This document shows positions 1,459 to 19,756 of a stretch of 59,556 nt of DNA, piece after piece. Both the position numbers and the translations under genes were made by a program. The first letter of the stretch is position 1. The number at the start of each line of letters is the position of its first letter. Source of the stretch: an uncultured virus (IMG/VR IMGVR_UViG_2687453727_000003). Its lineage: Duplodnaviria; Heunggongvirae; Uroviricota; Caudoviricetes. The stretch lies in IMG/VR virus record IMGVR_UViG_2687453727_000003, one strand, 5' to 3'. Below the pieces are notes generated by a model that saw nothing but the letters and a program-made list of their open reading frames with translations, was not told the origin of the DNA and did no database searches.

Positions 1459-1479
1459 TTCAAAGCCACCTTTCATACT

Positions 1480-1508: not shown

Positions 1509-1716
1509 CTTAAATATCATTGTATGAAAAAAGTAAAAGCAGCAACTAGAAGGAATCTAATTACCGCTTTTTGTGAATTAATATTATGCCAGTACTGTTG
1601 AGACTACTAGTTTTTTAGGAAATACTATTATATAACTAATATATCACAAATAAAGGAAAGTGTGTAAATTAAATAGAAAGTAGTTTGACTTTTGTTAAAA
1701 TATGTTATGATGTAAT

Positions 1717-1802
1717 TGAGAGAGTTAAGAGAATATGTTGGGTGCTCATTTAAGCATTTCGAAATAAAGGGAGTAGGGAGAAATCTTTATTCCCTTTATT
1801 CA
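1717..1802 (+). ncRNA. Candidate structured small RNA, copy 1 of 3
   Basis: Extended -10 TGtTATGAT (1703-1711); stem GGGTGCT-CATTTA-AGCATTT; long GAAA-tetraloop hairpin; paralogues at ~55855 and ~56383; no ORF. Confidence 0.55.
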
Positions 1803-1932
1803 TTACTGTATTAATAGCAGTAGTTAGGAGAGCTTTAACTGCTGCTTTTTTATTAAAACCCAAAAGTAAAAAAAATAATTACATAGTGTTATAGATTACT
1901 ATAATTTTTAATAAAGAAAGGGACCGTACATA

Positions 1933-3392
<1,460 letters not shown>

Positions 3393-3619
3393 ATAAAGTA
3401 CAACCCCTTTTAAGTATATATACATATACGGACCAAGAATACCCAACCACTATTATTATATTGGAAATTCTAAGAAAAAGAACAAAGTATATTAATTTTA
3501 TATAGCGAAATCTTACATTTTAGTTATTAATTAATATTTCTCATAGCAAATAAAATTTTAGTAATAAAATAGGATGAAATTTGATAAACTATTAGGATGG
3601 TAAAAGGAGAAATATAGAA

Positions 3620-3823
3620 ATGTATAACTTATATGTAAGAAAAATAATTACGGCTATTATAGAAAGTGATTATAAAACTATAATGGTTTATAAGAGTAGA
3701 TTAGCAGATGAAGAAATAAATTTAATAAATGAAATTGCATGTGAATACAGAAAAACAATTATTTTTGCATTTGTGAAAGATATCATTTTTAATACTGATG
3801 AAACTATATTGATTATAGAATAA
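3620..3823 (+). CDS. Hypothetical protein
   Basis: 67-aa ORF with AAAGGAG RBS. Confidence 0.65.
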   Translation: MYNLYVRKIITAIIESDYKTIMVYKSRLADEEINLINEIACEYRKTIIFAFVKDIIFNTDETILIIE

Positions 3824-4044
3824 TAGTTTTATCATCATTAAAAGGGTAATATATATGATAAAAAATTTATTATATGGAACAAAAGACAGCAAACTATTAA
3901 TTAATTTACTGTCTTTTGGCAACCTGCCAAGCTATAAAAGATTAGCAATTATAGTATTAGTAAATTACCAATATTTATACTATGGATTATTTGGGATTTA
4001 TGTAATATAATATCTCATAATAACATCAAGGTGGTGATTTTATT

Positions 4045-4194
4045 ATGAAAGATGTAACTATAGATACAATCAAAGATACAATAAGAGATCTTCCAGAAGG
4101 GGAACAAGAAGTAATATTATACTTAACAGAAATATTTAAAGGTGAAGAAGAGACTATTAATGAGTATATTAAGAATGAATTAATAGATAGATAA
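4045..4194 (+). CDS. Small acidic protein, 49 aa (not in ORF track)
   Basis: MKDVTIDTIKDTIRDLPEGEQEVILYLTEIFKGEEETINEYIKNELIDR; AAGGTGG RBS; frame-preserving paralogue at 56952-57113. Confidence 0.75.
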   Translation: MKDVTIDTIKDTIRDLPEGEQEVILYLTEIFKGEEETINEYIKNELIDR

Positions 4195-5155
4195 TATGGA
4201 ACTTTTTATATTAGTATGATAAAATGATAGAGATCCATTGAAAAAAACAAAAGTACATACAAGAAATGCAGCCTTTGAGTTGGCTGTATTTTCATTTATA
4301 TCATAATATAGAAGAAGGTTTAATTAATATAGATTATTCTATAATGGTATGTTATTATGATTATATCCACTCTATTGTCAACAAACACCAATAAAGGGTA
4401 GATTAAGTAAAAATACTTAGTCTACCCTTTATTTTACACCAAAATAGAGATAGCGAAAGAATCAGGTGCATGACAGTAAAGCTATCTCTTTTTTATGTTT
4501 AAATCCATAGATTGGAGCAGTTATATTATTAGCATAACATTAAGATTATATACATTGATTATAAGAAAACAAAAAAGCAGTAGTATTATTAATGAGGATA
4601 AATTAAAAAACTGACTATACTGGAAAAGTTGAATGGTGACATTAAATAGAGTAATAGTCACTTATTTTCATGATAATATGCTTATATACCATAAACCCTA
4701 AAGCATACATATAAAAATGCAGCCATTGATTCGACCGCATTTTTTGTCACTATTTACTTTATTGAAATATAATGGTAAAATGTGAATGTAAGTATTTTAA
4801 TATATCTATATGTCAATAGCAGCAGGCAAGTTTTTTGTTTGTTGCTATTTGATTTTGAAGAATTGTTCAGTTAAAAGATATTTAATTCAGAAGAAAAAAA
4901 TATAAAAATAGATATCAGAGGAAACGGAGAACTGCTATCTATTTTTACATATTTAAATTTGGACATTTATATTATTTCTAAATAATTAAAAAATATCCAC
5001 TAAAATTAATACATACTAACAATAAAATTACTACTCAATTTATTCTAATATGACTTTCTTTTATAATACAGCTAATAATTTAAATCTTATTATATTTGAC
5101 AAAGTTACCAAATAATATACAATTATATTTAGAAGAACATTTAGGGGGAATAATA

Positions 5156-5569
5156 ATGAAAAAAATACTTAATATTTTATTATGCAGCTTATTACTATTT
5201 ACTATAGTAGGTTGTGGGAGCTCAGCAAAGAAATATACAGCTGAAGAATATGGAAATAAGCTAAAAGATGCTGGAGTTACTATTGAGAATATGGAAGTCA
5301 CAACTACCGAAAATGATAAAAATCAGTTGTTGGGTAGACCAAATCAATATACATCTAAAGTAACTTTTACCAATGGTAGTATAGAGGTATTTGCTAATAA
5401 GGAAGACGCCACTAATAGAAAAGAATACATTGATAATATTGGTAAGAAAATGCCTTTAGTAGCTGAATATAACTACGCAAATGATACAGGAGCATTATTA
5501 AGACTTGATAAAAAATTAAATCCAGATGAGGCTAAAAAATATGAAGATGCATTTATGAAAATTAAATAA
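5156..5569 (+). CDS. Lipoprotein
   Basis: Lipobox IVGC; GGGGGA RBS supports a start at 5156. Confidence 0.8.
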   Translation: MKKILNILLCSLLLFTIVGCGSSAKKYTAEEYGNKLKDAGVTIENMEVTTTENDKNQLLGRPNQYTSKVTFTNGSIEVFANKEDATNRKEYIDNIGKKMPLVAEYNYANDTGALLRLDKKLNPDEAKKYEDAFMKIK

Positions 5570-5634
5570 TATTCTATATGCTAGGATTAATTTCCTAGCT
5601 TTATTTTTATGTATAAAAATATTTTAAAATAATT

Positions 5635-5709
5635 AAAAAAGCGGCAGCCATAGCTGCCACCAGTCCATTTTGCATAATTAGTATAACTCAAATTTATTAA
5701 TAAGGTCAA
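5635..5709 (-). ncRNA. Candidate ultra-short (~40 nt) sigmaA RNA with its promoter
   Basis: TTGACC-N18-TATACT, then GCAAAATGGACT, a GC hairpin and T6; paralogue at 57333-57406. Confidence 0.5.
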
Positions 5710-5759
5710 GAAGAGATATGTAGTTGTTTTATTAATATTACTTATATTAAAGGAGTGAA

Positions 5760-6023
5760 ATGTTTATGTCTAATTTTAGTATTAATGATAATCCATTTGG
5801 AATGATATTAATTATCTTTCCACTACTTACATTTATAATATCTCTAATTTTACAACTTTTAATTAAGAAAAAAGTAATTATTTTAAGTATTATTTTTATA
5901 GGGTATTTAATTGCTACATTTACTTTATTTAATTCAACTTTCCTAATATGGTGTTTTGTTTATACGGGTATATCATTAATCGGAACATTTAGTGCAGATT
6001 TAATTCTTAAACATAAGAGATAG
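5760..6023 (+). CDS. Small membrane protein (DUF2651/YbeF-like)
   Basis: Three hydrophobic segments; AAGGAG RBS. Confidence 0.7.
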   Translation: MFMSNFSINDNPFGMILIIFPLLTFIISLILQLLIKKKVIILSIIFIGYLIATFTLFNSTFLIWCFVYTGISLIGTFSADLILKHKR

Positions 6024-6199
6024 CTTACTTTATAATTTCTTTATAAATAGTAGATATATTACAATCGGTAATACTTATATTTATTAATTCTCATTAAACA
6101 CCATAATTTACTTGATATTATCAATCTCTATATTAAAGGAATTTAGAAGAAAATGTAGAAATTAAAGTATTGAAAGTAAAATTTAAGGGGGATGTTTTA

Positions 6200-6637
6200 A
6201 TGAAGAACTTTAAGAGATTGATAGCTAGTTTTGTTACATTAATAACAATATTAGCAGCAACACCGTTAGCAGCACATGCAGAATGGAAAAATAATTCTAA
6301 CGGATGGTGGTATACAGAAGGAAACTCATGGGCTACTGGATGGAGATACATAGATGGGAACTGGTATTATTTCTATTCTAATGGTTACATGGCTAAAGAT
6401 TGTTATATTGGAGATTATTATTTACGTGGAGATGGAGCGTGGACAACTCCTCCTTCAAAGAGTAGTAGTGGAAGTACGGCAAGCAATACTAATAATGATC
6501 AAAGTCAAACAGTGTATGTATCAAAGAATGGTATATATCATTCAAGTCCAACTGCACATGGTATGAAATATTATACTACTATGTCTTTAGCTGATGCTCA
6601 AAAGGCAGGGTATAGAGCTTGTGAAAAATGTTATTAA
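6200..6637 (+). CDS. Secreted cell-wall/choline-binding repeat protein with C-terminal Cys motif
   Basis: Signal peptide, GWWY...ATGWRYIDGNWYYF repeats, C-terminal AQKAGYRACEKC; SigH-like AAAGGAATTT...GTAGAAAT at 6135-6162. Confidence 0.85.
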   Translation: MKNFKRLIASFVTLITILAATPLAAHAEWKNNSNGWWYTEGNSWATGWRYIDGNWYYFYSNGYMAKDCYIGDYYLRGDGAWTTPPSKSSSGSTASNTNNDQSQTVYVSKNGIYHSSPTAHGMKYYTTMSLADAQKAGYRACEKCY

Positions 6638-6799
6638 TATAATAAAGGATAATATATAAAAAAATAGAGGTAGTACTAAATGTTTTTTTAGTACTATCCT
6701 CTATTTTTATTAGATGGAATAATTATGATTTCTTCAATAAATAATTATTGACACAATATAGAAAGAATATACAATAATAGTAGACAAAGGGGGATTAAA

Positions 6800-7759
6800 A
6801 TGACAAAAACTAAAAAAGTTATTAGCTTATTACTAACTTTATTATTTTCATTGTTTCTAATATCATGTGGGAAAAGTTCTCAAGTTAATAATGTTAATAA
6901 TACTAATAGTACAACAGCAGCTACTACAGAAACAAAAATAGAAACTCAAAAAACTTTAGAAGATTTAAAGATACATTATATAGATGTTGGACAAGGCGAT
7001 AGTGAATTAATTCAAATAGGAGATAAAAATATATTAATCGACGCAGGAACTAGTGATAAAAAGGCTTTAGATTATCTTAAATCAATTGGAATCACTACAA
7101 TAGATTATGCAATTGCAACTCATCCACATGAAGATCATATAGGTAGCATGGATGATGTTATCAATAATTTAAAAGTTGGAACTTTTTATGCACCTAAAGC
7201 AACAACAACAACTAAGACATTTGAGAATATGGTAGATGCTTTAAAAAACAAAAACTTGAAAATGAATGTACCAAAAGTAGGAGATCAAATTACGGTAGGA
7301 GACGCAACATTAACATTTTTAGCTCCTAATAGTGCTAAGTATGAAGATTTAAATAATTATTCTATTGTCTGCAAATTAAAATACGGTAATAATTCATTTA
7401 TATTTATGGGAGATGCGGAAGATGTAAGTGAGGGGGAGATACTACAAAAACAATTAGATATACAGGCTGATGTTCTAAAGGTTGGGCATCACGGAAGTCA
7501 TTCGTATACAACTCAAGCATTTTTAGATAAAGTAAACCCTAAATATGCAGTTATAAGTTGTGAAAAAGGTAATGATTATGGACACCCACACGAAGAAACT
7601 TTAGATAAACTAAATGCTAAAAATATTAATGTATTTAGAACAGATTTAGAGGGAACAGTAATAGCAACAAGTGATGGAACAAATATAACATTCAATGTTA
7701 AGCCAGTTGATAAGGCTAATGACATAGCTCCTAAAAAAACTAATAAAAAAGATAATTAA
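6800..7759 (+). CDS. ComEC/Rec2-type metallo-beta-lactamase-fold lipoprotein
   Basis: Lipobox LISC; DVGQGD, THPHEDHIG, KVGHHGS, YGHPH; paralogue of 58615-59556. Confidence 0.9.
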   Translation: MTKTKKVISLLLTLLFSLFLISCGKSSQVNNVNNTNSTTAATTETKIETQKTLEDLKIHYIDVGQGDSELIQIGDKNILIDAGTSDKKALDYLKSIGITTIDYAIATHPHEDHIGSMDDVINNLKVGTFYAPKATTTTKTFENMVDALKNKNLKMNVPKVGDQITVGDATLTFLAPNSAKYEDLNNYSIVCKLKYGNNSFIFMGDAEDVSEGEILQKQLDIQADVLKVGHHGSHSYTTQAFLDKVNPKYAVISCEKGNDYGHPHEETLDKLNAKNINVFRTDLEGTVIATSDGTNITFNVKPVDKANDIAPKKTNKKDN

Positions 7760-8012
7760 ATTTATAAATCAGTAGTCATTATGTCTGCTGATTTTTTATA
7801 TCCATATATTAATATTCTATAAAATAAATACAAATATAATTATGGGAAAATCATTAAGTTTCTATCATTTCATTTCGATAATTTGCATTATGTAATAATA
7901 TATTTTCTGGATAAAAACATATGAATTTAAAGAAAATAAATGATTATATGGAAAAAGTAAGAGGAAAATTTTCTTTACAAGATAACGAAGGTTAAATATA
8001 ATATATTTATGA

Positions 8013-8024
8013 GAACGTATGTTT
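8013..8024. promoter_or_regulatory. LexA (SOS) box-like site
   Basis: GAACGTATGTTT matches Firmicute GAAC-N4-GTTY, just downstream of a TATAAT. Confidence 0.5.
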
Positions 8025-8139
8025 GCATAAGACGTGGATTTTATTAAAGGAATCGAGAAAATATTGAACTTAAGTATGGTAGAAGGATGTAAGTGGATAC
8101 TATTTAAAATATGGTAAAGTTTATTTTTCTAATAATGTT

Positions 8140-8343
8140 GTGATAAAAGGAATGATAGCTATGGTAATAAAAGATAAAGAATTAGATATAAATTTAGTAA
8201 GTGCTGTGGAGAAATATTTAAAACTAAATTACAGTGATCTATATAATAAGAATAATTTAGGAATAGTATTTGAAGAAGCTAAGGAAGATGATGAACTTAA
8301 GTTAAAAATATTTAATTCAATAAGAAGATTTATAATGAATTAA
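8140..8343 (+). CDS. Hypothetical protein
   Basis: ORF; AAAGGA RBS suggests a start at 8161. Confidence 0.6.
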   Translation: MIKGMIAMVIKDKELDINLVSAVEKYLKLNYSDLYNKNNLGIVFEEAKEDDELKLKIFNSIRRFIMN

Positions 8344-8531
8344 CGTAAAAAGATATTTAATAACAAATTATCATTAGAAATTATATATTATGTTAAAATC
8401 AAATTGAAGATTTAGAGTTTTCTTAGAAATCACCCAATAACGTAATGTGATATTTTATATCAGTATTCGTTATTGGGATAAGTATATAGAAATTTTTATA
8501 GTAAATAAATTTATAATTCCTGGTATAGGAG

Positions 8532-8759
8532 ATGACACATATGATAAGAATTTGTTTATCTAGAGTATTAGGGGAAAAAAGATGGACTCAAGCTTATTTG
8601 GCTAAAAAAACTGAAATAAGGCCTAATACTATTTCGGAACTTTATCATGAATTAAATAATAGGGTGAATTTAGATCATATTGATAAAATATGTGAAGTGG
8701 TAGGATGTGATCTTACAGATATATTAAAATACGAACCTAATAAAAAGAAAACCGATTAA
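8532..8759 (+). CDS. Cro/C1-type HTH regulator
   Basis: WTQAYLAKKTEIRPNTISELY...IDKICEVVGCDLTDIL; upstream inverted repeat CCCAATAACG/CGTTATTGGG at 8433-8477. Confidence 0.85.
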   Translation: MTHMIRICLSRVLGEKRWTQAYLAKKTEIRPNTISELYHELNNRVNLDHIDKICEVVGCDLTDILKYEPNKKKTD

Positions 8760-8787
8760 TTCGTATTGCGAAAGTATTGGTTAATTA

Positions 8788-9874
8788 ACGTGAGTTCGAT
8801 GGAAAAATTTAAGGGATAAAAAATCCCATCAAAATGTTTTATTATATAAGTGCGACCAAATAAATAAAACAAAGGATGGGATTTTATGCAAAACTTATTA
8901 GTGGAAATATTTTATGATGTAGACAATTTTTGTATTGGATTTGAAAATTACTGTAAAAGTCATTTCCTAACGGAAAATAGCGACCGCAAATTTGCAATGA
9001 TTAAAAGTAAAACTTTATCATTAAGCGAAGTTATGACAATAACTATCTACTTTCATTTGTCAAATTACAGAACTTTTAAATCATACTATATTGAGCATGT
9101 GTCTACTGTTCTCAAACCGTATTTTCCTAAGCTTGTGAGCTACAATAGGTTTGTTGAATTAATGCAACAATCATTAGTTGCACTACTATTATACATGATG
9201 AAATTTAGAACTGGCAAGTGCACAGGAATTTCTTTTATCGATTCTACAACTTTGAATGTATGCCATAATAGAAGAATACACTCTCATAAGGTTTTTAAAG
9301 GAATTGCAGAACGTGGTAAAAGTTCAACGGGCTGGTTTTATGGTTTTAAGCTTCATCTTGTTGTTAACGATAAAGGGGATATTCTCTCTTTTTATCTAAC
9401 TCCGGGAAATGTAGATGATAGAGAAATTAAGACTATAGAAATATTAGCAAAAGATTTATTTGGAAAACTTTTTGGTGACAAAGGTTATTTATCTAAAAAG
9501 ATCTCCGATATTTTGTATTCCAAAGGCATTCAGCTTATAACAAAGATAAAGAAAAACATGAAAAATAAATTAATGTTAATGGAGGATAAAATTCTTCTTA
9601 GGAAAAGAGCTATCATTGAAACAATAAATGACCAACTAAAAAATATATGTCAGATAGAGCATAATCGACATAGAAGTTTTACTAATTTTGCGGTTAATAT
9701 AGTTTCAGGATTGATTTCATATAGTTTTCTTCCTAAGAAACCTTCTCTTAAGTTGGACAAATATCTAACTATGGAATAATTGGAATATCGAACCACAAGA
9801 TTACAAGGATACTTTTTTGCTTTTTTTCATAACCATATTTACCCATAAAATATTCTAGCTTTTCGAACTCACGT
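8788..9874 (+). mobile_element. IS982-family insertion sequence
   Basis: Terminal IR ACGTGAGTTCGA / TCGAACTCACGT; 6-bp TSD TAATTA at 8782-8787 and 9875-9880. Confidence 0.92.
8886..9779 (+). CDS. IS982-family transposase
   Basis: FIDST, GWFYGFKLHL, FGDKGY, RAIIETINDQLK. Confidence 0.95.
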   Translation: MQNLLVEIFYDVDNFCIGFENYCKSHFLTENSDRKFAMIKSKTLSLSEVMTITIYFHLSNYRTFKSYYIEHVSTVLKPYFPKLVSYNRFVELMQQSLVALLLYMMKFRTGKCTGISFIDSTTLNVCHNRRIHSHKVFKGIAERGKSSTGWFYGFKLHLVVNDKGDILSFYLTPGNVDDREIKTIEILAKDLFGKLFGDKGYLSKKISDILYSKGIQLITKIKKNMKNKLMLMEDKILLRKRAIIETINDQLKNICQIEHNRHRSFTNFAVNIVSGLISYSFLPKKPSLKLDKYLTME

Positions 9875-10101
9875 TAATTAGTAAATCTCTTGTATTTAGA
9901 TAATACGAGAGATTTTTTAGTTTGAATTTATAACGTTAGATTTGTATTTTGAAATTCGTAAAATTTGTACAACACGAACATTAATTCTAATATGCATCAT
10001 ATGAAGATTGAATAATGAGGTCCATAAAATAGTAGTTAGATACAAAATATGGTATAATATCCTAATATAGCAGAGGTAATAGGATGGAAGGAGTATAAAA
10101 T

Positions 10102-10779
10102 ATGAATGAACTATATTTAATGCAATTAGATTATTTATTAAGGCTCTTTATTGCTGCAATATGTGGGATGGCTATTGGATATGAAAGAAAGAATCGAATG
10201 AAAGAGGCTGGAATTAGAACACATTTTATTGTAGCTATAGGGGCAGCACTTATAATGATTATATCGAAATATGGATTTCAAGATCAGATAGGATGGCTCA
10301 ATATGTCTCTTGATCCATCACGTATAGCAGCTCAGGTTGTCACAGGAGTTGGATTCCTTGGTGCAGGGATAATTTTTATGCAAAAACAAACAATAGTAGG
10401 ATTAACAACGGCAGCAGGAGTTTGGGCTACAGCTGCTATAGGTTTAGCTATAGGTTCTGGACTTTATTTTGTTGGGATAGCAGCTACTGCTATTACTATA
10501 TTGGGACAAATACTTTTGCATGGTAAAATTAAATTTTTATCATCTCCAAGGACAGAGTCATTAGCGTTGCAGATTGTGGATGAGCCAGATGCTATTAAAT
10601 TTCTTCAAGAAATATTTGAAGATAATGAGATAACTATAATTAATTTAAAGAGCAAAAGAGATGAAAAATCCTTATTAATTGATTTGAAAATAGTGATAAG
10701 AATATATGAATCATTTAATATAATTAAATTCTTGAATATATTGCAAAGTAAAGATTTTGTAAAGTCTTTAGAATTTTAA
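10102..10779 (+). CDS. MgtC/SapB family membrane protein
   Basis: IGYER...AGIRTH, DPSRIAAQVVTGVGFLGAG, GLTTAAGVW. Confidence 0.92.
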   Translation: MNELYLMQLDYLLRLFIAAICGMAIGYERKNRMKEAGIRTHFIVAIGAALIMIISKYGFQDQIGWLNMSLDPSRIAAQVVTGVGFLGAGIIFMQKQTIVGLTTAAGVWATAAIGLAIGSGLYFVGIAATAITILGQILLHGKIKFLSSPRTESLALQIVDEPDAIKFLQEIFEDNEITIINLKSKRDEKSLLIDLKIVIRIYESFNIIKFLNILQSKDFVKSLEF

Positions 10780-11126
10780 GGGAAAATAAATTGTGCTAAT
10801 AAAGAATAAATTTAATGAAAATAATGGATATAAAAATACCGTAGTATTCAAAAATGAATTTGCGGTATTTTTTATAGTTTAAATATTATTTAACACTATG
10901 AACGTATGCAAATTTGTGTTCAGTGTATATTTAAAAATTTCTAAAATTACATATTTAGAAAAACTTTATATTTTTATACGCTTAAAATTAATAATAAAAT
11001 GTTATAGTATTTCTTATTTTGTTACTCTTCCACATAATATTAAGTGTTCATTAATGAATTATTAAACACTTAGACAATAAAGAGCATAATATAATCATAA
11101 GTTAATTTATGAACGGGGGAATATTA

Positions 11127-11528
11127 ATGGAGAATTCGACCATTGAAGAATTACAAGAACGAATTAGTTTATATAAAGATAAAATAGAGTTACTAACCAA
11201 AGATAATGTTAGACTATATAACGAAATAGAAGAAATAAAAGTTGATACAAATGTTATTAGCTCCAAGGAATATGATATTCTATTAGATAATATGGAATTA
11301 TTAAAATCGGAACTTGAAAAGTATAAGAATTTATATTTTCGCGAAAAACAGAAAAGTAAAGTTCATATAGTAAAGAAGTCAAAAATTGTTGGAAGAAAAC
11401 CTGTATCGGATGAATTAAGAAATAAAGTATTAGATTTAAAAAAGCAAGGATCAAATATAAGGAGCATTGCTAAGGAATTGAATATTGCGCTTGGTATTGT
11501 TCACAAAATAATTAATGAACAAAAATGA
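11127..11528 (+). CDS. Coiled-coil protein with C-terminal resolvase-like HTH
   Basis: GRKP...GSNIRSIAKELNIALGIVHKII; GGGGGA RBS. Confidence 0.75.
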   Translation: MENSTIEELQERISLYKDKIELLTKDNVRLYNEIEEIKVDTNVISSKEYDILLDNMELLKSELEKYKNLYFREKQKSKVHIVKKSKIVGRKPVSDELRNKVLDLKKQGSNIRSIAKELNIALGIVHKIINEQK

Positions 11529-11688
11529 TAAGTGAAATATCTATACAATGCTAAAATAGAATGTATGAAAAGGAGCATATCAGGATAATTAAAAATTATC
11601 TTAATATACTCCCTTTTGTTTTATTTTTCTAAATTAAATTACCATAAAAGTCTAAATATAAATTTTCCTACATTATAATATAAGAAAT

Positions 11689-11973
11689 TTAATCAAGATA
11701 ATTTTTAGGAAGATTGAATGCTTTAATTATTTTCTTCTTTGATGGCAAACTTGGATTAAAAATTCCTCTTTCCCATTGACCAATAGTGACTACTTTTCTA
11801 TTGATCTTTTTACCGAATTCAATCTGGGAAAGTCCGCTAAGATATCTAAGCTTACGAATTCTATTTGTTATATTATCTTCAAGGTCATTAAAAATAGCAT
11901 TAGCTAAAAATTCCCTATAATTAACAGTAAATAGCTCGAATACACTTTTAAATGTTGCACTTTTATACAGGTT
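11689..11973 (-). pseudogene. XRE-family HTH ORF lacking a start codon, 5'-truncated at the putative att junction
   Basis: 94 open codons including NRIRKLRYLSGLSQIEFGKKINRKVVTIGQWERGIFNPS; no in-frame ATG/GTG/TTG upstream of the HTH, hence absent from the ORF track. Confidence 0.8.
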
Positions 11974-12064
11974 GCAACCGGTTCTGGCAAAACTACTACA
12001 ATCTATACAATATTGAAAGAAATAGATTCCAAAGCTTTAAATATAACGACGTTGGAAGATCCAG
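11973..12064 (+). pseudogene. Internal fragment of a host GspE/PilB/ComGA-family secretion/pilus ATPase gene
   Basis: From 11974 reads ATGSGKTTTIYTILKEIDSKALNITTLEDP (Walker A plus Asp box); similarity stops at both ends. Confidence 0.85.
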
Positions 12065-12084
12065 AAAGTTTTAAATTGCACTAA

Positions 12085-13530
12085 CTAATAAATCAAGAGA
12101 TTATCACCATCCCATACTAATTTATCGAAAATTATGTTTATCAAATTTTGTTTATCCTCTAAATTTATTTTATTAAAATGTTTTACAAATTCATTTTTAG
12201 CTAGTTCTTTGTTTTTAAGCATTTCATCCTTTTTGCTTTTGTTATTTAGAACTATTTGATATTTGGTGTATTGCACATTTAGTTCTTCGATTTCGAGTGA
12301 GAGCTGTTCTGCTTTGTCTAACATAGATTTTGCAACAGCAGTTGAAGCAAGAGCAGACTTTTCCAAAAAACCATCATACATCTTTTTCTTTTTCTTAAGT
12401 TGTTTTTCTATATTTTCAGCAATATTAAATTCAATATTTTCATCATTTTTATTTAAGATTTTTTCAAGATTTCCGTTTTTTAAAGTAGAAAAAATTTTAT
12501 CTTCTATTTCATCAACTCTTATTCCTGAAAAACAATTTTTCTTGCATCTAAAATACATAGGCCTAGTTCCGTCTTTTCTTATGCTTCCATAGTTTATGCT
12601 CATTATTTTATTACATTGTTTACATATGATTTTATGTGCTAGCCAACTTTTAGTAGATATTCTAGGTGGTACATGTTCCAATGCCCTTAGCCTTTCTCTA
12701 ACTTTTATCCAAAGAGTAGAGTTTATTATTCCTTTATTTTGTGTTATTACCGCCAAATTAACCATTTTATCTTTTATAAACTTGTTGTATTTATAAGTCA
12801 TATAGCCATTACCATTAGGTTCTCCAATTACTTTATATCCAATAGTGGACAGGTATTTGTTGGAAATTTCATCTGATATTAAATAAATAGGATTTCTCAA
12901 AACAGTTCCTAAATTTCTAGGTGTTATTCCAGTTTCCTTAGAAATCGTCCACATAGAGTTACCAATAGAAAATTGGTTAAAAATATATAGGATTTCTTCT
13001 TTTTTCTCGATTTCCAAATACTTACCTCCAATTCCTTCAGAAGCAACACAACCATAAGGAGGAGTTCCTCCGCTCCAGCGACCTTGTTTAGCTAAACTAT
13101 ACATACCATCAATAGCACGTCTTTTAATATTTTCTCTTTCCATTTCAGCTAAAGAAGCTAATAACGTCATCATCATTTTTCCAGCAGGAGTTCTGGGATC
13201 ATAATTATCCTGAACACAAACCAAATCGACTCCAATTTTTTTTAACTCCTCAAATGTATTAAGGAAATCTAGAGTATTTCTAGCCATCCTATCAAGCTTA
13301 TAACAAGCAACAACATCAAATTCATTATTATGAGCATTAGCTATCATTTGTTTAAATGCCGGTCTGTTTATGCTTCCGCCGCTAAACCCATCATCAGTAT
13401 ATACAACAAACTTGCAGTTTTCTTTATTGAAATAATTTTTTATTATTTCAAGTTGCGCATCTATTGAAATACTATTTTCATCCCCTTTTACAGACTTTCT
13501 TAAATATGCTGCGATTTTCATAAAATTCAC
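12085..13530 (-). CDS. Large serine integrase
   Basis: AAYLRKS catalytic Ser, DDGFSG, RP, LDRMARN, recombinase domain, CxxC...YFRC zinc ribbon, coiled coil; stop 20 bp from the junction. Confidence 0.95.
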   Translation of the reverse strand: MNFMKIAAYLRKSVKGDENSISIDAQLEIIKNYFNKENCKFVVYTDDGFSGGSINRPAFKQMIANAHNNEFDVVACYKLDRMARNTLDFLNTFEELKKIGVDLVCVQDNYDPRTPAGKMMMTLLASLAEMERENIKRRAIDGMYSLAKQGRWSGGTPPYGCVASEGIGGKYLEIEKKEEILYIFNQFSIGNSMWTISKETGITPRNLGTVLRNPIYLISDEISNKYLSTIGYKVIGEPNGNGYMTYKYNKFIKDKMVNLAVITQNKGIINSTLWIKVRERLRALEHVPPRISTKSWLAHKIICKQCNKIMSINYGSIRKDGTRPMYFRCKKNCFSGIRVDEIEDKIFSTLKNGNLEKILNKNDENIEFNIAENIEKQLKKKKKMYDGFLEKSALASTAVAKSMLDKAEQLSLEIEELNVQYTKYQIVLNNKSKKDEMLKNKELAKNEFVKHFNKINLEDKQNLINIIFDKLVWDGDNLLIY

Positions 13531-13589
13531 CCTTTCGAATGTATGTTCTTTTTTGCGTATAGAAAATTCAGTCTAACCTAAACTTGTGA

Positions 13590-13892
13590 TTAGATTACAT
13601 TAGTTGCAAATTGGATTAAGCGTTGCAAAGCTATTGGGTTATTTTCAAATTCAATAGCTTCGCTTTCACATTCAGGAGTTTCTAAGTCGCTATTAAAATG
13701 TCTTAAGTGAATTAATTCATGTAGTAATTTCTTTATATTATATTCATAAGTCAAATTCGAATTTAGAATAATAACTTTTTGCCCGTTGTTGTCAATTGTT
13801 GCCCCTGTGAAAGTACATTCTAAATTAGTAAAAACAACTCTCAATTCTCCACAATCAATCATCTTTTTTGCATTTTTCATTATGTTAACCAT
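13590..13892 (-). CDS. ImmA/IrrE-like metallopeptidase (anti-repressor)
   Basis: LLHELIH...ESEA; lies between repressor and integrase. Confidence 0.75.
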   Translation of the reverse strand: MVNIMKNAKKMIDCGELRVVFTNLECTFTGATIDNNGQKVIILNSNLTYEYNIKKLLHELIHLRHFNSDLETPECESEAIEFENNPIALQRLIQFATNVI

Positions 13893-13906
13893 AGTAATAC
13901 CACCCT

Positions 13907-14266
13907 TTAGCTTTCTGTTTCTTCCTCAAACATCTCAATCATTTTTATTATTTTATTTTTATCTTTTTCAGTTAATTTTTCAAATTTGGAGAAGAATATC
14001 TTATTTTTTTCTATGTATTCATCAAGCTTATTAGTTTTAGATATGTCTTCTGAATCAGAAATATCACTTTCAAAAAATTCATTTACAGAAACATTAAAAG
14101 CTTTTGCAAGAAGTTCAAGAGAATCAGTTTCTATTTTTCTTTTTCCGTTCTCCATTTTACTTATAGTAGACTGAGGGATTCCTGTTAATTCGGATACATC
14201 ATAGGTTGTCAAATTTCTATTTAATCTTAAAAGTTTTAGCTTCTCATGAGGTTTCATTAAAATCAC
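13907..14266 (-). CDS. CI/ImmR-like XRE repressor
   Basis: HTH LTTYDVSELTGIPQSTISKMENGKR; divergent from cro. Confidence 0.9.
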   Translation of the reverse strand: MILMKPHEKLKLLRLNRNLTTYDVSELTGIPQSTISKMENGKRKIETDSLELLAKAFNVSVNEFFESDISDSEDISKTNKLDEYIEKNKIFFSKFEKLTEKDKNKIIKMIEMFEEETES

Positions 14267-14284
14267 CTTTCTATTTTCCTGTTT

Positions 14285-14437
14285 AATTCTATTTTAGAAT
14301 AATTCAAAAATAGAATTATGTCAAGCATTTTGAAGAAAAACGGAGCAATAGCGAGCTAGTTTAAGTATTTAATTCTAAAATGGAATTGTAAACGAAAAGA
14401 TTTAATTCTATAATGTAATTAATTCGAAAATGGAATT
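14285..14437. promoter_or_regulatory. Lysis/lysogeny switch: five 17-bp AATTC-N7-GAATT-like operators overlapping divergent sigmaA promoters
   Basis: Operators at 14285, 14301, 14371, 14404 and 14421; rightward TTGTAA-N17-TATAAT (14386-14414); leftward TTGACA-N17-TATTCT (14324-14296). Confidence 0.8.
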
Positions 14438-14448
14438 GAGGTGAGAAA

Positions 14449-14643
14449 ATGGAAGTAGGAAATAGAATTAAAGAACTAAGAAAACAAAAAAATATGTCAC
14501 AAAACAGCCTAGCAAAAAAAATAAAGAATTTAAACCAGTCTCAAATATGCAAAATCGAAAATGGAGATAGATCTATTAAAGCAGACGAGCTTAAAGAAAT
14601 TGCACACGCTTTGAATATTCCAGTTTCAGAATTATTAAATTAA
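14449..14643 (+). CDS. Cro-like XRE regulator
   Basis: RIKELRKQKNMSQNSLAKK...ICKIENG. Confidence 0.9.
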   Translation: MEVGNRIKELRKQKNMSQNSLAKKIKNLNQSQICKIENGDRSIKADELKEIAHALNIPVSELLN

Positions 14644-14661
14644 ATAGGGAGCTGAGTATTT

Positions 14662-14787
14662 ATGAATAAAAAAAAGAAGGAAATAAATTTAATATGGATG
14701 ATTACAAAGGAAGAGTTCGATAAAAGGTTTACCTTAGCAGTACAAGAATATTTCAAGAACTATACAGCTGAGGAGACTCAAAACTGA
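14662..14787 (+). CDS. Small protein, 41 aa (not in ORF track); RDF candidate
   Basis: MNKKKKEINLIWMITKEEFDKRFTLAVQEYFKNYTAEETQN; AGGGAG RBS; directly after cro. Confidence 0.55.
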   Translation: MNKKKKEINLIWMITKEEFDKRFTLAVQEYFKNYTAEETQN

Positions 14788-14983
14788 AATTGTGATTTCC
14801 AGATCACCCGAAAAGTCTTACTAAACTACGCAACATAATTTTCAAATAGTTAAGCAAGAAATTTAATTAATATAACAAATCTTATTTATCATATCTCACA
14901 ACTCGAAGCAATTACATTCAGTAATTTTCAGCTAAGAGTAAATATTAAATTTAAGTATAGAAGGAAGTGAGGAAATTATAAAA

Positions 14984-16063
14984 ATGAATGATTTAACTAT
15001 TGACAATGAGTTTAAAGACTTACTACCTCCATTATCAGAGGAACAAAAGGAAGAGCTCGAAAAAGACATAATTAAAAATGGTTGCATAAATTCACTAACT
15101 GTATGGAAGAACATTTTGATAGATGGCCATCACAGGCATGAGATATGCACAAGGAATAATATTCAATTCGATATAGTTGAAATGGAATTTAAGGACAGGC
15201 TCGAGGCTATGGAATGGATTTGGATGAATCAAAAAAATAGAAGAAATTTAACTAAGTATGAGTTAGCACAAATAGCACTGAAGTTTAAGCCAGTAATAGA
15301 AGCTAAAGCTAAAGAAAATCAATTATCAACACTTAAACAAAATACCGTTTTGACGAAATCATCAAAACGGGAAGATGAAAGAAAAGAGTCTGTTGAAGAA
15401 AACACCAACCTAGTTGATTCTGATGGAAATCAACCGATAGATGGACAAATTGATTTTACAGAAATAAATGAAGAAAAAGTGAAAAAGGTAGAGCCTATAA
15501 ACACTAGAAAGGAGATAGCAAAAATAGCAGGAGTTTCAGAGGATACAATCCATAAGGTTGAAGTTATCGAAGAAAAAGCTCCAGAAGAAATTAAGCAGCA
15601 AGTGAAGAAGGGAGACATAACAATTAATAGTGCTTATGTTCTTACTAAATCAGCTATAGAGGCAGACAAAAAGAACGCTGAATATGAAAAAGAGTACCAG
15701 GAGCAGTTGGAAAAAGAACAGCAAGAGAATGAAGAAAAGAAGAAGTTAGAAGAAATTCAAAAGAACCTTCCAGAAAATGCAGTTGTATTAGATAAATTCA
15801 GGAAACCAAAAGAAGCTCATATTTTTGGAATTGAAGACTTCAATAACCTAACAATGGATCAATTTAATGATTGTATAAAGCATTCTAAAAAATATCGTGA
15901 TGCAATTAGTAAAGTTGCATTATTAAGTACAGATATAGAGGCATTAATGGCATGGGGAGCAATAGCCAATACTCCAGATATTGTAGAAATAGAGCTACAA
16001 GATATTAATTCAGCTATCCAAAATTTAATTAAGATACAGAACTATTTTAAAGGAGGCAAGTAA
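14984..16063 (+). CDS. ParB/Srx N-terminal-domain protein with HTH
   Basis: LPPLSEEQKEELEKDI...LIDGHHR...NQKNRRNLT; TRKEIAKIAGVSEDTI. Confidence 0.8.
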   Translation: MNDLTIDNEFKDLLPPLSEEQKEELEKDIIKNGCINSLTVWKNILIDGHHRHEICTRNNIQFDIVEMEFKDRLEAMEWIWMNQKNRRNLTKYELAQIALKFKPVIEAKAKENQLSTLKQNTVLTKSSKREDERKESVEENTNLVDSDGNQPIDGQIDFTEINEEKVKKVEPINTRKEIAKIAGVSEDTIHKVEVIEEKAPEEIKQQVKKGDITINSAYVLTKSAIEADKKNAEYEKEYQEQLEKEQQENEEKKKLEEIQKNLPENAVVLDKFRKPKEAHIFGIEDFNNLTMDQFNDCIKHSKKYRDAISKVALLSTDIEALMAWGAIANTPDIVEIELQDINSAIQNLIKIQNYFKGGK

Positions 16064-16064
16064 T

Positions 16065-16466
16065 ATGAGTGAAGCATTAGAAAAAAAGGCCAAAGAAAAG
16101 ATACTAGAACAGATGGACGAGCTTGGCGGAGAAATAACTACAGATGACGTTGTAGAGCTATTAAGACCACACTATATATTTAATATCCGTAAGCTTAGGG
16201 AACAAGCGTTAAGAAGGACAGCCAATAACTTAATGGCAACATACCGTGATAATAAAGGTGTTAGAACTTGTTTTAGCTGTAAGGATGATAGCGGAAATTC
16301 AAAATATTTTAATATCGAAACTACAACTGATTTAAAAGCATTAAAAAACATTGAAATCCAGTTAAATAAAAAATATAAAGGTCTTAATATTTCTAAGAAA
16401 AAAGTTCAAAGAAGAAGAGACGAGCTTTCAGGACAAGTATCATTTAAAGAAGTTGAAAATTCATAG
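16065..16466 (+). CDS. Hypothetical phage protein
   Basis: ORF with AGGAGG RBS, coupled to the ParB-like gene. Confidence 0.75.
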   Translation: MSEALEKKAKEKILEQMDELGGEITTDDVVELLRPHYIFNIRKLREQALRRTANNLMATYRDNKGVRTCFSCKDDSGNSKYFNIETTTDLKALKNIEIQLNKKYKGLNISKKKVQRRRDELSGQVSFKEVENS

Positions 16467-16485
16467 ATTGAGGAGGAATTATAAG

Positions 16486-16926
16486 ATGCAAAAATACAGA
16501 TTACACGTTGATGAGACAATAAACAGATTAAACTTCATTGATATTGAAACAGAGCTAAATGAAAAAGAAGTTGATGCATTACTTACTAAAATTGAAAAAG
16601 AGGATATTACAAGTGCATTAGATTTAAAGCGAAGATTAGAGACACAAGGTGTGCAAGTAAAATCAATAAGAGTAGATAATGGACCTTATTACAGAAGAGC
16701 TGAAACATTGGAAATTGAGGAGCTAGAAGATGTCAAAAGGAAAGGAATTATGGTTAAGTTCAAAGCTTGTGATTTAAGCAAATCAATAATTGAACAAGCT
16801 ATCGATGAACTAAGGGAAAGGATGCATATTAGTATTTCAGTAAATGGGCCACAGTCTGACACAACTATTAAAATAAGTCAGCAACTGGATGAATTGATTG
16901 TTGTAGAAATGAGGTCTAGGATATGA
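16486..16926 (+). CDS. Phage protein with C-terminal Spo0E-like domain
   Basis: IDELRERMH...TIKISQQLDELIV (SQELD-like); GAGGAGG RBS; internal RBS plus ATG at 16750. Confidence 0.7.
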   Translation: MQKYRLHVDETINRLNFIDIETELNEKEVDALLTKIEKEDITSALDLKRRLETQGVQVKSIRVDNGPYYRRAETLEIEELEDVKRKGIMVKFKACDLSKSIIEQAIDELRERMHISISVNGPQSDTTIKISQQLDELIVVEMRSRI

Positions 16927-17111
16927 AAAAATGTGAAGATTGTGATGAATGCACATATATAGGCGAAGGTGATTATGTCTGCATTAAGGATGAACCTAAA
17001 ATTGTTATTACTGAATTTATTATTGCAACAGATGATTATGGACAATGTGGAAATAAAAAAGCTACCAAGAACCCCGACCAAAGCGTTCAAAGTAGCTACA
17101 ATAAGTTTTGA
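16923..17111 (+). CDS. Cys-rich small phage protein
   Basis: CEDCDECTYIGEGDYVC. Confidence 0.7.
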   Translation: MKKCEDCDECTYIGEGDYVCIKDEPKIVITEFIIATDDYGQCGNKKATKNPDQSVQSSYNKF

Positions 17112-17154
17112 AAATATTTCAAGAACATTATAACACATGAGAGGAGGAATTCAA

Positions 17155-17376
17155 GTGTTAGTTAGATGTCAGTGGAAAACTTGCATTAATTACAAGGATG
17201 GAATGTGTAAAGCTCCTGCAATAGAACTTAAGAGCTTTGACTATGAAGAAGATAATGAGGAACTTGAGGGATTAAAATGCGACAGTTATAAATATGATTC
17301 CTTTTGGATGTGTAAAGAAGGTAGAGAAGTTGACTCTAAAGATTTTAATAAGGAGGCTGATGTAGTTGGCAAATAA
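17155..17376 (+). CDS. Cys-rich small protein (DUF1540-like)
   Basis: VRCQWKTCINYKDGMCKA; GGAGG RBS before GTG at 17155. Confidence 0.65.
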   Translation: MLVRCQWKTCINYKDGMCKAPAIELKSFDYEEDNEELEGLKCDSYKYDSFWMCKEGREVDSKDFNKEADVVGK

Positions 17377-18199
17377 TCAGATACAAGCATATGTGATAGG
17401 TGCATTAAATGAGAAATTAACTAGTATGTTAGAAATAGAAAAGAAGGCACTCCCAGAAGGTTTTAATGGACTTAGGTTTAAGCAAAATGTTCTAAGGGTT
17501 TTAAATACTGTTAACTTAGAAAATATGAAAGGGCAGGAGTTTAACCTTGCTAAATGTATAATGCGTGGAGCATATCTGGACTTAGATTTTGCTAACAATG
17601 AATGCTATGTAATTACCTACAAGGGCAAACCGGAATTTATGACAGATTACAAAGGCGAAACCAAGCTTGTTAGGAAGTTTAGTTCTAAAAAAATTAAAGA
17701 TATTTATGCAAAGCTAGTTCGTTATGGTGATGAGTTTGAAGAAGGTGTTGACCATGGTAAGCCATATGTAAACTTTAAGCCAAAGCCATTTAATAATGAT
17801 GATATTACGGGAGTTTTTGCAGTTGTTTATTACGAAGATGGTGCGATGGAATACGAAACAATGTCTAAGGAAGAGGTTGAGTATATTCGAGACAATTGGA
17901 GCAAAAAGGATAAGTATGGGAAGTTTTCTGCTGCATGGGTAAAGAGCTTTGGTGAAATGGCAAAAAAGACTGTTTTGAGAAGACTTTGCAAACATATAAA
18001 TATTGATTTTGATAACATTAAGCAGCTTGAAGCATGGGAAGAAGGTTCGGATATGGAATTTGAAAATGAAAAACCCAAAGAAGCTGCTACAGAAAAAAGT
18101 GATCTTGAAAAAGAATTAGAGGAGAATGAGGACATTGTTAAACAAACTGATTTTGTAGATACTCCATTTGAGGAGGTTAATGAATATGGTGATAACTAA
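17366..18199 (+). CDS. recT: RecT-family single-strand annealing protein
   Basis: ECYVI...DYKGE, LVRYGDEF, W...FGEMAKKTVLRRLCK. Confidence 0.9.
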   Translation: MANNQIQAYVIGALNEKLTSMLEIEKKALPEGFNGLRFKQNVLRVLNTVNLENMKGQEFNLAKCIMRGAYLDLDFANNECYVITYKGKPEFMTDYKGETKLVRKFSSKKIKDIYAKLVRYGDEFEEGVDHGKPYVNFKPKPFNNDDITGVFAVVYYEDGAMEYETMSKEEVEYIRDNWSKKDKYGKFSAAWVKSFGEMAKKTVLRRLCKHINIDFDNIKQLEAWEEGSDMEFENEKPKEAATEKSDLEKELEENEDIVKQTDFVDTPFEEVNEYGDN

Positions 18200-18953
18200 A
18201 GAGAATTATTACAGCATAGAAGCCGATTTAAGCACTATGTCAGTATCACAGTACAAACTATTTAAGCAATGTGAATTAATGGCTATGGCAAAGCTAAAAG
18301 GGGAATATAAACAGAGTGAAAGTGATGCATTCCTATTAGGCAAATATATTCATTCATGGAGTGAAGGAACTTTAGATGATTTTAAAAAAGAAAATCCAAG
18401 CTTATATTCAACTCAAGGCAAAACTAAAGGGGAATTAAAATCAACTTTTAAAGTAGCTGAAACAATGGTTAAGTCCTTAGCAGATGATTCGAATTGTATG
18501 AAATTTTTGCAAGGCAAAAAAGAAGTAATCATTCAAGGCGAATTATTTGGTATTAAGTGGCGTGGAATGGTTGATGTATTGAACTTAGAAAAAGGATTCT
18601 TTACAGATTTAAAGACAACCCAAGGAATCCATAAAAAATATTGTGGATTGACCTTTATTGAGCATTACGGGTATATAGAACAAATGGCAATTTATAGAGA
18701 GTTAATTAAACAACAATTTGGCAAAGACTTAATTCCATACATTGTTGCAATAGAAAAGAATGATAATCCGCTTAAAGCAATAATTAAAGTAGATGAAAGG
18801 TACACCACACCAAAGCTTGAGGAAATTGAGTACAACATCGGGCGCATTATAAAAGTTAAAAGTGGAGAAGAAAATCCAATTGCGTGTGGTTTATGTGATT
18901 ATTGCAGAGCTAATAATAAGGTAACTCAAATTTTAACAATAGAAGAATTGTAG
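18180..18953 (+). CDS. PD-(D/E)XK exonuclease (RecT partner)
   Basis: MSVSQYK, WRGMVDVL...DLKTT, YIEQMAIY, CGLCDYCR. Confidence 0.85.
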   Translation: MNMVITKENYYSIEADLSTMSVSQYKLFKQCELMAMAKLKGEYKQSESDAFLLGKYIHSWSEGTLDDFKKENPSLYSTQGKTKGELKSTFKVAETMVKSLADDSNCMKFLQGKKEVIIQGELFGIKWRGMVDVLNLEKGFFTDLKTTQGIHKKYCGLTFIEHYGYIEQMAIYRELIKQQFGKDLIPYIVAIEKNDNPLKAIIKVDERYTTPKLEEIEYNIGRIIKVKSGEENPIACGLCDYCRANNKVTQILTIEEL

Positions 18954-18961
18954 GTGATTGA

Positions 18962-19756
18962 ATGGCTAAAGTGTACTATTGGCTTAAATTAAATAAGGAT
19001 TTTTTCAAAGGTAAAGAAATTAAGAAACTAAGGAAAATAGCTGGTGGAGATACTTACACAATAATATATTTGAAGCTTCAATTACTTAGTCTTAAGGATG
19101 AAGGAAAGCTGTATTTTGATGGAATAGAAGAAACATTTGCGGAAGAATTAGCCTTAGAACTAGATGAAGATTCAGACAATGTAAGTTTTGTATTAATGTA
19201 TCTAAAAAAGTGCGGATTACTGAAAGAAATTTCAGATTCAGAGTTACTTTTGAATGAGGTTCCAACGTCAATAGGAAAAGAGACAGATAAGGCTCAACTA
19301 ATGAGAAATAAACGCTTTAAGAATAAAAAATTAATAGAAAGTGGTAACAATGTTACCGAAGAGTTACCACCTGTTACTTTTTGTTACACAGAGATAGAGA
19401 TAGAGAAAGAGATAGAGAAAGATATAGATATAAATAAAAAAACTAAAAAAAGAAAAATAACTTCGATTGATTCTTTAATTAACAACTATACCAGTAATGA
19501 AGAATTGAGAAATACTTTAGTTGATTTTATAAAAATGAGAAAGTCAATTAAAAAACCTATGACGGATAGAGCTTTACAGATAATGCTTAAGAAGCTAAAG
19601 GGCTTATCGGAAAATGAAGAAATACAAATTAAAATTTTAGAAAATAGCATAGAGCATTGTTGGCAAGGCATATTCGAACTTAAAGAAGACCATAAGAACC
19701 AGACAACTATATCTAACAATAAAAAACAATATGATGCATTTCAATTTGATGAATAG
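18962..19756 (+). CDS. Phage replication initiator (replisome organiser N-terminal domain)
   Basis: YYWLKLNKDFF...IKKLRKIAGGDTYTIIYLKL. Confidence 0.9.
   Translation: MAKVYYWLKLNKDFFKGKEIKKLRKIAGGDTYTIIYLKLQLLSLKDEGKLYFDGIEETFAEELALELDEDSDNVSFVLMYLKKCGLLKEISDSELLLNEVPTSIGKETDKAQLMRNKRFKNKKLIESGNNVTEELPPVTFCYTEIEIEKEIEKDIDINKKTKKRKITSIDSLINNYTSNEELRNTLVDFIKMRKSIKKPMTDRALQIMLKKLKGLSENEEIQIKILENSIEHCWQGIFELKEDHKNQTTISNNKKQYDAFQFDE
19343..19430. repeat. Putative phage origin: phased iterons inside the initiator gene
   Basis: GGTAAC-AAT-GTTACC palindrome; GTTAC at 19352, 19363, 19373 and 19383 (10-11 bp spacing); followed by GAGATA repeats and an A-rich tract. Confidence 0.65.

Follow-up and report, generated by a model that had tools for sequence, protein, structure and literature searches.

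A fragment of a pilus-type ATPase gene between two prophages in the Clostridium beijerinckii group, and how it may have been trapped there

Why should 90 nucleotides (nt) of a pilus-type ATPase gene stand alone between two prophages? The question is raised by the IMG/VR virus record IMGVR_UViG_2687453727_000003 (Caudoviricetes), a stretch of 59,556 nt which is referred to here, at its full length, as the window. A first-pass annotation, made from the letters alone, proposed that the host gene is cut twice and is restored only when both elements excise, which would make the arrangement a two-key switch for pili or competence. We call the piece the micro-exon, the prophage on its left phiA and that on its right phiB, and the places at which they entered the gene site A and site B. 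It is suggested here that two separate site-specific integrations enclosed the micro-exon, that it is probably a by-product of repeated hits on a favoured target and not an evolved switch, and that in this genome a part of the gene has probably been lost.

The piece itself is as follows.

11975 to 12064, plus strand: micro-exon, a 90-nt in-frame remnant of the ATPase gene, residues 228-256 of 454, including GSGKT of Walker A

The plus-strand frame from 11950 reads KCCTFIQVATGSGKTTTIYTILKEIDSKALNITTLEDPESFKLH up to a stop codon, and this stretch of 44 amino acids (aa) matches the Pfam family T2SSE (PF00437) over the Walker A region (E=1.9e-8; 33.8 bits against a cut-off of 24.9; profile positions 148-180 of 370). 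Among longer proteins its counterpart is P0001, a 454-aa GspE/PulE-family ATPase which a source names as Clostridium beijerinckii; residues 228-256 of this protein agree with window 11977-12063 at every one of 29 positions (tblastn, E=1e-11). At the DNA level 11975-12064 agrees with the intact gene of G023, a genome of the C. beijerinckii group, at 89 of 90 nt, the sole difference being synonymous. Homology ends sharply on both sides, where GP gives way to VA on the left and PVE to PES on the right. The earlier reading of a piece of a GspE/PilB/ComGA-type gene, about 90 bp long, sharply bordered and lying between two elements, is borne out by these comparisons, although its coordinates (11974-12063) were one base off. 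The window holds residues 228-256 only; tblastn with P0001, P0002 and P0003 found no other part of the gene in its 59.5 kb, the remaining matches all having E>1.

In G023 the intact gene is followed by a T2SSF (GspF-type) platform gene and by a gene with a prepilin N-methylation motif (N_methyl). P0001 scores below the cut-off of each NCBIfam equivalog (GspE, 366 bits against 630; PilB, 346 against 676; ComGA, 288 against 300). The product is predicted to be the motor of a type IV pilus-like or competence-type filament, and we assign it to the superfamily only, under no named subfamily. The host belongs to the C. beijerinckii group. Our survey took in 130 genomes of the genus of G002 (Clostridium sp. 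1001275B_160808_H3), of which 122 were scored and 8 were not. The gene is intact and unoccupied in the four nearest genomes (G023, G121, G005 and G006), and the elements are therefore accessory. The record of the intact G023 gene, L060, in which the gene lies at 82-1443, served as the reference for contigs from sequencing runs.

The left junction is made up of these features.

11954 to 11970: P arm of the phiA attP, kept in attR(A), GTTGCACTTTTATACAG
11975 to 11984: common core of site A, CAACCGGTTC, in both attL(A) and attR(A), seen as the 10-nt overlap of run contigs and in the homologous junctions of G022 and G077

Site A is occupied alone in G022, G077 and G087. In G022 a 62.5-kb insert splits the gene into parts encoding residues 3-230 and 223-454. 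Next to the 5' part is a 551-aa serine integrase, 30% identical to that of the window. The 3' part is bordered by the right end of the insert, a helix-turn-helix (HTH) gene and the arm GTTGCGCTTTTATA, which shows homology to window 11659-11975. An integrase of this A type stands beside the 5' part in all three genomes checked, that of G077 being 72% identical to the G022 enzyme and that of G087 62% identical over the 152 aa before its contig ends. When the attL and attR halves of G022 are joined by eye at AACTGG they read N-G-P-T-G-S-G-K-S, in frame. The phiA crossover lies inside CAACCGGTTC, in the Walker A codons P-T-G-S, and not at the TG of 11973-74 as had been proposed; the symmetric centre is probably the AC at 11977-78. 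The arm GTTGCACTTTTATACAG, found also in attR of G022 and G077, matches the reverse complement of the first 17 nt of an attL(A) end from run X1, described below, at 15 of 17 positions. The partner arm takes the form GTATAAAAGTGCAAC in attL of G077 and G087 and is present in attL of G022 as well. Two imperfect inverted arms thus surround a core of 10 nt.

The right junction has its own set.

12058 to 12064: site B crossover region and end of host-gene homology, GATCCAG, codons D-P-V, from comparison with the G023 gene and with attL and attR of G002
12065 to 12084: P' arm of the phiB attP, kept in attL(B), with TGCAATTTAAAAC on the minus strand
12085 to 13530, minus strand: large serine integrase of phiB, 481 aa, its stop 20 nt from the end of homology

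The 481-aa protein is a serine recombinase by its match to Resolvase (E=1.5e-38, residues 6-152); a match to Zn_ribbon_recom (E=0.0011) was below cut-off, and CcrB, CcrA and XisF are matched distantly. Integrases 95-96% identical to it occur in two IMG/VR records, and one 61% identical lies in G002 beside the split gene. That G002 integrase is convergent with, and 25 nt from, a 5' part encoding residues 3-257; the 3' part (residues 250-450) is on another contig, behind 1.1 kb of foreign DNA. Joined by eye at the shared CCA, the two junction halves read E-E-P-V-E-V, in frame. The split in G002 and its in-frame healing make the end of the LEDP/VE codons a real attB of the phiB integrase family. 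The attP arms of G002 carry TGC(T)ATTTA(A/G)A and are inverted repeats of each other. For phiB one arm is seen in the window, the inverted pair being known through G002 only; the window has no second copy of the P' arm, so that its partner lies elsewhere.

With the gene empty in the four nearest genomes, site A occupied in three others and site B in G002, both junctions have the character of serine-integrase att sites. The first-pass annotation was therefore right to see two elements at distinct attB sites about 90 bp apart, and to place the integrase stop 20 bp from the right end of the piece. It had also paired two flanking arms, 11956-11968 and the reverse complement of 12068-12080. Their match at 10 of 13 positions is real, but 14.7% of 3000 random pairs of 40-nt window stretches match at least as well, so that it is at chance level, and our search of the window for repeats did not report it. 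As mutual partners these arms were rejected, the partner of the left one being the phiA attL arm.

Serine integrases of the phiC31, Bxb1 and A118 type act on an attP of about 50 bp with imperfect inverted arms and a short core, and the integrase gene lies beside the att site. The arms and core of phiA and the position of the phiB integrase, which adjoins its att site, are of this kind, but the integrases are only distant relatives: the best matches in the phage collection were 29-38% identical for phiB and 49% for the A-type integrase of G022. Both junctions are best accounted for by conservative site-specific recombination, phiA and phiB each having entered with its own large serine integrase, phiA through CAACCGGTTC and phiB at GATCCAG, 80-90 nt downstream.

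Related prophages in one genome are a classic cause of misjoined assemblies, and the two flanks could in principle have been brought together through a short common sequence. Another isolate, however, has the same arrangement. Its independent IMG/VR provirus record, L072, carries the same micro-exon between the same two flanks (60 nt on the left and 40 nt on the right are identical) and an integrase 96% identical. It is 96.9% identical to window 9873-13536, so that 3.1% of positions differ, and it lacks the insertion sequence (IS) at 8788-9872. Our search of sequencing runs listed 24 runs from 11 studies; 20 of these hold part of 11500-12600, 11 hold at least half of the sampled words, and three were flagged as possible sources of the window. 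The junction lies within a 5088-nt contig of run X1 and within contigs of X2 and X10, and X7 shows the two outer junctions. An assembly chimera is hardly credible in the face of these records.

The run contigs also show what lies outside the window. In X1 a contig of 9595 nt covers L060 1-770 and then continues as GTGAATAAAAGTGCAAC, a loose attL(A) end resembling attL of G022; the 5088-nt contig covers L060 761-850 with both window flanks as its loose ends; and a contig of 33087 nt covers L060 985-1601 with a foreign loose end before 985. The GTGAATAAAAGTGCAAC end behind 770 is found in four of four runs, the left flank of the window before 761 in three of four, the right flank behind 850 in four of four and the foreign junction before 985 in two of four (X1 and X2). 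Since one contig leaves the gene at 770 and the next enters it at 761, the 5' part is joined to phiA, and the overlap of 10 nt is the site A core. The 5' part that was to be expected at the outer left end is hence present in the probable source genome, where it ends in attL of phiA.

These contigs bear on a further possibility, that the 90 bp were picked up by aberrant excision of phiA or phiB and are carried as phage DNA, with an intact host gene elsewhere. The lack of any other gene part in the window would fit. Against it, the 5' part in junction-bearing runs ends exactly at site A, within attL(A) and with the 10-nt core overlapping the fragment; the left flank is homologous to the attR end of site A prophages that abut the full 3' part in G022 and G077; and among the contigs listed for the runs none bridges the sites. 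We regard this origin as very improbable.

The annotation expected the 3' part after the right prophage, beginning at VE or IE, and it was not found there. The 5' part and the micro-exon fit together, but in X1 and X2 the 3' part begins at about residue 302, at L060 985 and not at 851, so that 134 nt are unaccounted for and the halves would not join in frame. This position is a third site, site D. In G039 and G083 a tyrosine integrase of 385 or 386 aa stands beside the 5' part, which stops near residue 308, and in G083 the foreign DNA in front of the 3' part (residues 300-454) reaches to the core position at which the X1 junction lies. Site D is by these junctions a real attB of tyrosine-integrase phages. 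G039 keeps the 5' part only (residues 4-308; L063, C1:2906657-2907571), beside a prophage with a tyrosine integrase, and no 3' part was found genome-wide at E<=1e-10.

A second link between phiB and site D is given by the provirus G001, the nearest of the records compared, which divides the right-hand side of the window into two.

12065 to 14962: integration and immunity module of phiB (integrase, M78-like peptidase, two HTH regulators), not in G001
14963 to 59556: phage body and cargo common to G001 (replication, packaging, contractile tail, XhlA/holin/GH25 endolysin at 54851-55636, post-lysis cargo)

Over 14963-59556 (44.6 kb) the window and G001 are 99.7% identical, all differences lying in 14963-19341, and the 40.2 kb of 19342-59556 are 100% identical. 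Where the window has its serine-integrase module, G001 has a tyrosine-integrase module, whose integrase shares 57.7% identity with that of G039 and 56.6% with that of G083. Window 11400-12400 has no counterpart in G001, which is also without any part of the ATPase gene.

Because the 3' part begins at site D and the body of phiB is identical to that of G001, phiB is most likely a recombinant of phiB with a site D prophage, phiD. On the simplest history, site B once held a phiB and site D, in tandem with it, a G001-like phiD, and homologous recombination between their nearly identical bodies would have deleted the stretch of the gene from B to D together with attR(B), attL(D) and the tyrosine integrase. 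The prophage now on the right would then be a phiB/phiD hybrid, and since the 134 nt missing are not a multiple of three the gene would be off for good. The piece between sites A and B would merely be trapped, having had no time yet to decay. We consider this account, taken as a whole, to be the probable one, with appreciable room for error. No contig of X1, X2, X7 or X10 covers L060 851-984 (depth 0 in bins 865-972); it is because no contig covers this segment that its absence from the genome is favoured, and the hole was not counted as evidence. X7 and X10 have nothing after L060 850. The 30-nt loose end before L060 985 had no match in the window or in the 130 genus genomes (each with up to 3 mismatches), in IMG/VR contigs or in metagenome contigs, and the 31 nt of the gene just after site B had none in IMG/VR contigs.

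An alternative is that nothing was deleted and that three prophages, phiA, phiB and a G001-like phiD, stand in tandem, with a second small piece of the gene (residues 257 to about 301) beyond the window. The site D junction in X1 and X2 would be expected, as would the existence of G001 as a full provirus with a site D-type integrase and a body identical to that of phiB. The 5088-nt contig of X1, which has the micro-exon at 2872-2961, ends at about window 14935, where G001 homology begins, and this fits a repeat. The break near 14935 is equally explicable by the similarity of phiA and phiB, however, and no positive evidence was found for a second piece or for attR(B). Three resident prophages therefore seem to us a doubtful explanation.

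The two-key switch, in which each prophage heals one site on leaving and the ATPase is rebuilt as a regulated pilus or competence function only when both have gone, has several points in its favour. The two att junctions are clean ones of the serine-integrase type, in-frame healing can be read at site A in G022 and at site B in G002, genomes with a single site occupied, and the 5' part is present and joined to attL(A). Several further points also tell against our preferred account of a trapped piece and a deleted segment. The gene pieces show little sign of decay: the micro-exons of the two doubly occupied lineages, the window and L072, differ at three positions, all third-codon and synonymous; differences from G023 listed inside the gene for the run contigs are all but two at third-codon positions, which would also fit a gene that is still rebuilt and used; and the gene parts of X1 have no indels relative to G023. 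Double occupancy recurs across several strains and studies, as a useful arrangement would likewise predict. X1 and X2 may be the source genome of the window, in which case they describe that genome and are not independent support. Since the window stops short of the right end of phiB, which was never reached, we infer the hybrid history of this prophage.

Against the switch, X1 and X2 have the beginning of the 3' part at site D, 134 nt past site B, in a junction of the tyrosine-phage type; the partner arm of the phiB attL is missing from the window; and no excision joint was reported from the contigs of the public runs. We read the undecayed gene pieces as a sign that the integration events are recent. 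Restoration by double excision is not supported, and is probably impossible here; the first-pass annotation had named missing outer gene parts or an out-of-frame join as grounds for giving the idea up, and this is in part what was found. A two-key switch is thus unlikely and for this genome probably wrong, although a gated version may exist in strains with complete att pairs.

That the micro-exon arose from repeated hits on one target is in keeping with the survey. In the 122 scored genomes we counted splits at or beside Walker A in at least five (G022, G077, G087, G017 and G027, the Walker A codons being struck by still further elements in other species), at site B in at least one (G002) and at site D in at least two (G083, and G039, which is without the 3' part). 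The serine recombinase of G027, which is only 27% identical to that of G022, lies at the same CCAACTGG. In G017 an island of 19.7 kb begins a few nt downstream of the Walker A codons (L066/L067, C22:45500-68000) and carries three tyrosine recombinases in a row (310, 684 and 677 aa) with PLD-nuclease, TIR/SEFIR, AAA_21 and HATPase_c genes; judging from its gene content it looks like a defence island on a recombinase-trio element. A break at residues 268-289 in G063 was not counted as a site, being at or near contig ends.

The ATPase gene is, by these splits, a multi-site landing pad. A bolder reading, which we hold to be possible but not probable, is that the pad is a dedicated one, with at least four kinds of recombinase having their own attB within about 230 bp: two or three serine families (Walker A and LEDP/VE), the tyrosine integrase of site D and the three-tyrosine-recombinase island of G017. 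In solventogenic clostridia this one gene would then be contested by temperate phages, which would stack in it and recombine through it, and stacked lysogens would form a combinatorial lock on pili or DNA uptake, all residents having to leave before the gene could be rebuilt where att pairs are complete.

The remaining features of the window belong to the two prophages.

1 to 11974: right-hand (post-lysis) cargo end of phiA, from Pfam matches, paralogy with the phiB end and gene order in G006 and G022
11692 to 11970, minus strand: HTH_3 (XRE-type) open reading frame (ORF), last gene of phiA, E=3.8e-8, running through the P arm and without an ATG, GTG or TTG start

Window 1514-7750 is a colinear paralogue (68-88%) of 55726-59553, the stretch that follows the phiB endolysin, and in G006 no more than 30 nt separate the 3' end of an endolysin from a following gene that is 94% identical to the binding-protein gene at window 41-1134. 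The left 12 kb are therefore the post-lysis cargo end of a phage, and the site A prophage of G022 has homologues of the phiA cargo genes in the same order. These genes encode a periplasmic binding protein, an IS3-family transposase (2018-3352), DUF2651, a choline-binding repeat protein and a metallo-beta-lactamase-fold protein, followed by HTH_26, the IS (8782-9881), MgtC, a DUF6115/HTH protein and the HTH_3 ORF. The IS has a 297-aa DDE_Tnp_1_3 transposase, and G005 and G121 contain several copies 99% identical to it; since L072, which otherwise matches, is without it, the insertion in the phiA cargo is a recent one. Host-like cargo is present at both prophage ends: phiA has the MgtC-family protein (10102-10779), and each prophage has one metallo-beta-lactamase-fold gene (6800-7759 and 58615-59556), the two being 88% identical. 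We gave up the thought that a deletion had extended into the host flank, as the 122-aa ORF at 1138-1506 is not homologous to the 122-aa ORF upstream of the G022 gene.

The start-less layout of the HTH ORF is conserved in three elements (the window, G022 and G077), as is its N-terminal extension, (L/I)Y(K/E)SATF..Y(R/K)EFL. A candidate start is a conserved GAAGAT followed by an ATA, ATT or ATC codon. In the attP of the excised G022 circle, as modelled, the HTH gene has only two TTG codons and no ribosome-binding site. In the double lysogen the ORF lies directly downstream of the phiB integrase on the same strand.

The right prophage, between 12085 and the GH25 endolysin, is a complete contractile-tailed phage with RecT, DnaB, RusA, portal, capsid, sheath, baseplate J, tail fibre and XhlA, and the window ends at the stop codon of a metallo-beta-lactamase-fold gene. 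The shared body has, far from both prophage ends, a 335-aa tyrosine recombinase (23790-24797, plus strand; Phage_integrase E=2.9e-35). A gene at 16453-16926 (plus strand) has a Spo0E-like domain (E=3e-10), and its product could be a phage-borne modulator of the host sporulation phosphorelay. Between the early and packaging genes, at 28876-30259, a 295-aa minus-strand ORF with no family match stands back to back with a 165-aa HEPN-domain ORF, and by this arrangement they may be a defence or toxin-antitoxin pair. After the endolysin about 2 kb (55640-57700) are without an ORF of at least 60 aa and hold repeated units with terminator-like hairpins, a diverged copy of which is at 1514-4500. Scans of the whole window, including these repeats, gave no Rfam family and no tRNA gene. 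Megablast of window 11000-13600 against the phage collection gave no match, and the ends of phage HM T held nothing bearing on the ATPase gene.

Several known systems invite comparison. Serine-recombinase elements split genes of spore formers, namely SPbeta in spsM (SprA/SprB), skin in sigK, gin in gerE and yin in yabG of C. botulinum, and some of them are reported to leave during sporulation (PMC4191935, PMC5499854, PMC5595907, PMC5025042, PMC10747680). The present locus is like them in having an integrase at the element end, an insertion in coding sequence, clean att junctions and, in relatives, in-frame healing at single sites. It differs in that the target is a pilus or competence ATPase gene and not a sporulation gene, that two elements lie 90 bp apart, and that reconstitution is doubtful with the 3' part at a third site.

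The comK gene of Listeria is an integration target of prophages. Prophage attB sites in competence or pilus genes are also described for comGA of Staphylococcus pseudintermedius, comYC of streptococci and pilQ of A. baumannii (PMC12378983). In all of these a temperate phage uses a gene for DNA uptake or pili as attB and knocks it out, as here. The present gene differs in that it serves at least three phage families, whose integrases differ and enter at separate points, and in that two of them together leave an internal piece. In Calothrix sp. NIES-4101 the nifBHDK genes are in 13 parts and are restored by several excisions and inversions (PMC11249958, PMC4874684). This is the true precedent for an AND gate, one gene being cut by more than one recombinase-bearing element so that several recombinations are needed. 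The cyanobacterial elements are domesticated and developmentally excised, whereas here they are full prophages and the evidence points to loss of a gene segment. Our searches of Creative Commons-licensed PubMed Central papers and bioRxiv preprints yielded no account of prophages entering this Clostridium gene, or of a single gene occupied by two prophages at a distance of 90 bp.

The locus shows several unrelated integrases converging on one conserved gene, and an internal remnant as the outcome when they meet. The resident prophages have probably recombined so that neither integrase can cleanly remove the result. The locus also provides attB/attP pairs of natural origin for at least two serine integrases whose targets lie 90 bp from each other, and these are candidate orthogonal tools for clostridial genome engineering. 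If the gene is indeed a dedicated pad and its stacked lysogens a lock, the arrangement may serve the exclusion of superinfection or of transformation. The findings bear on the stability of prophages and on the loss of pili and DNA uptake in the industrially used C. beijerinckii group, and, if strains with complete att pairs do excise the prophages and rebuild the gene, theirs would be the first gate in the Firmicutes that several prophages form on a single gene.

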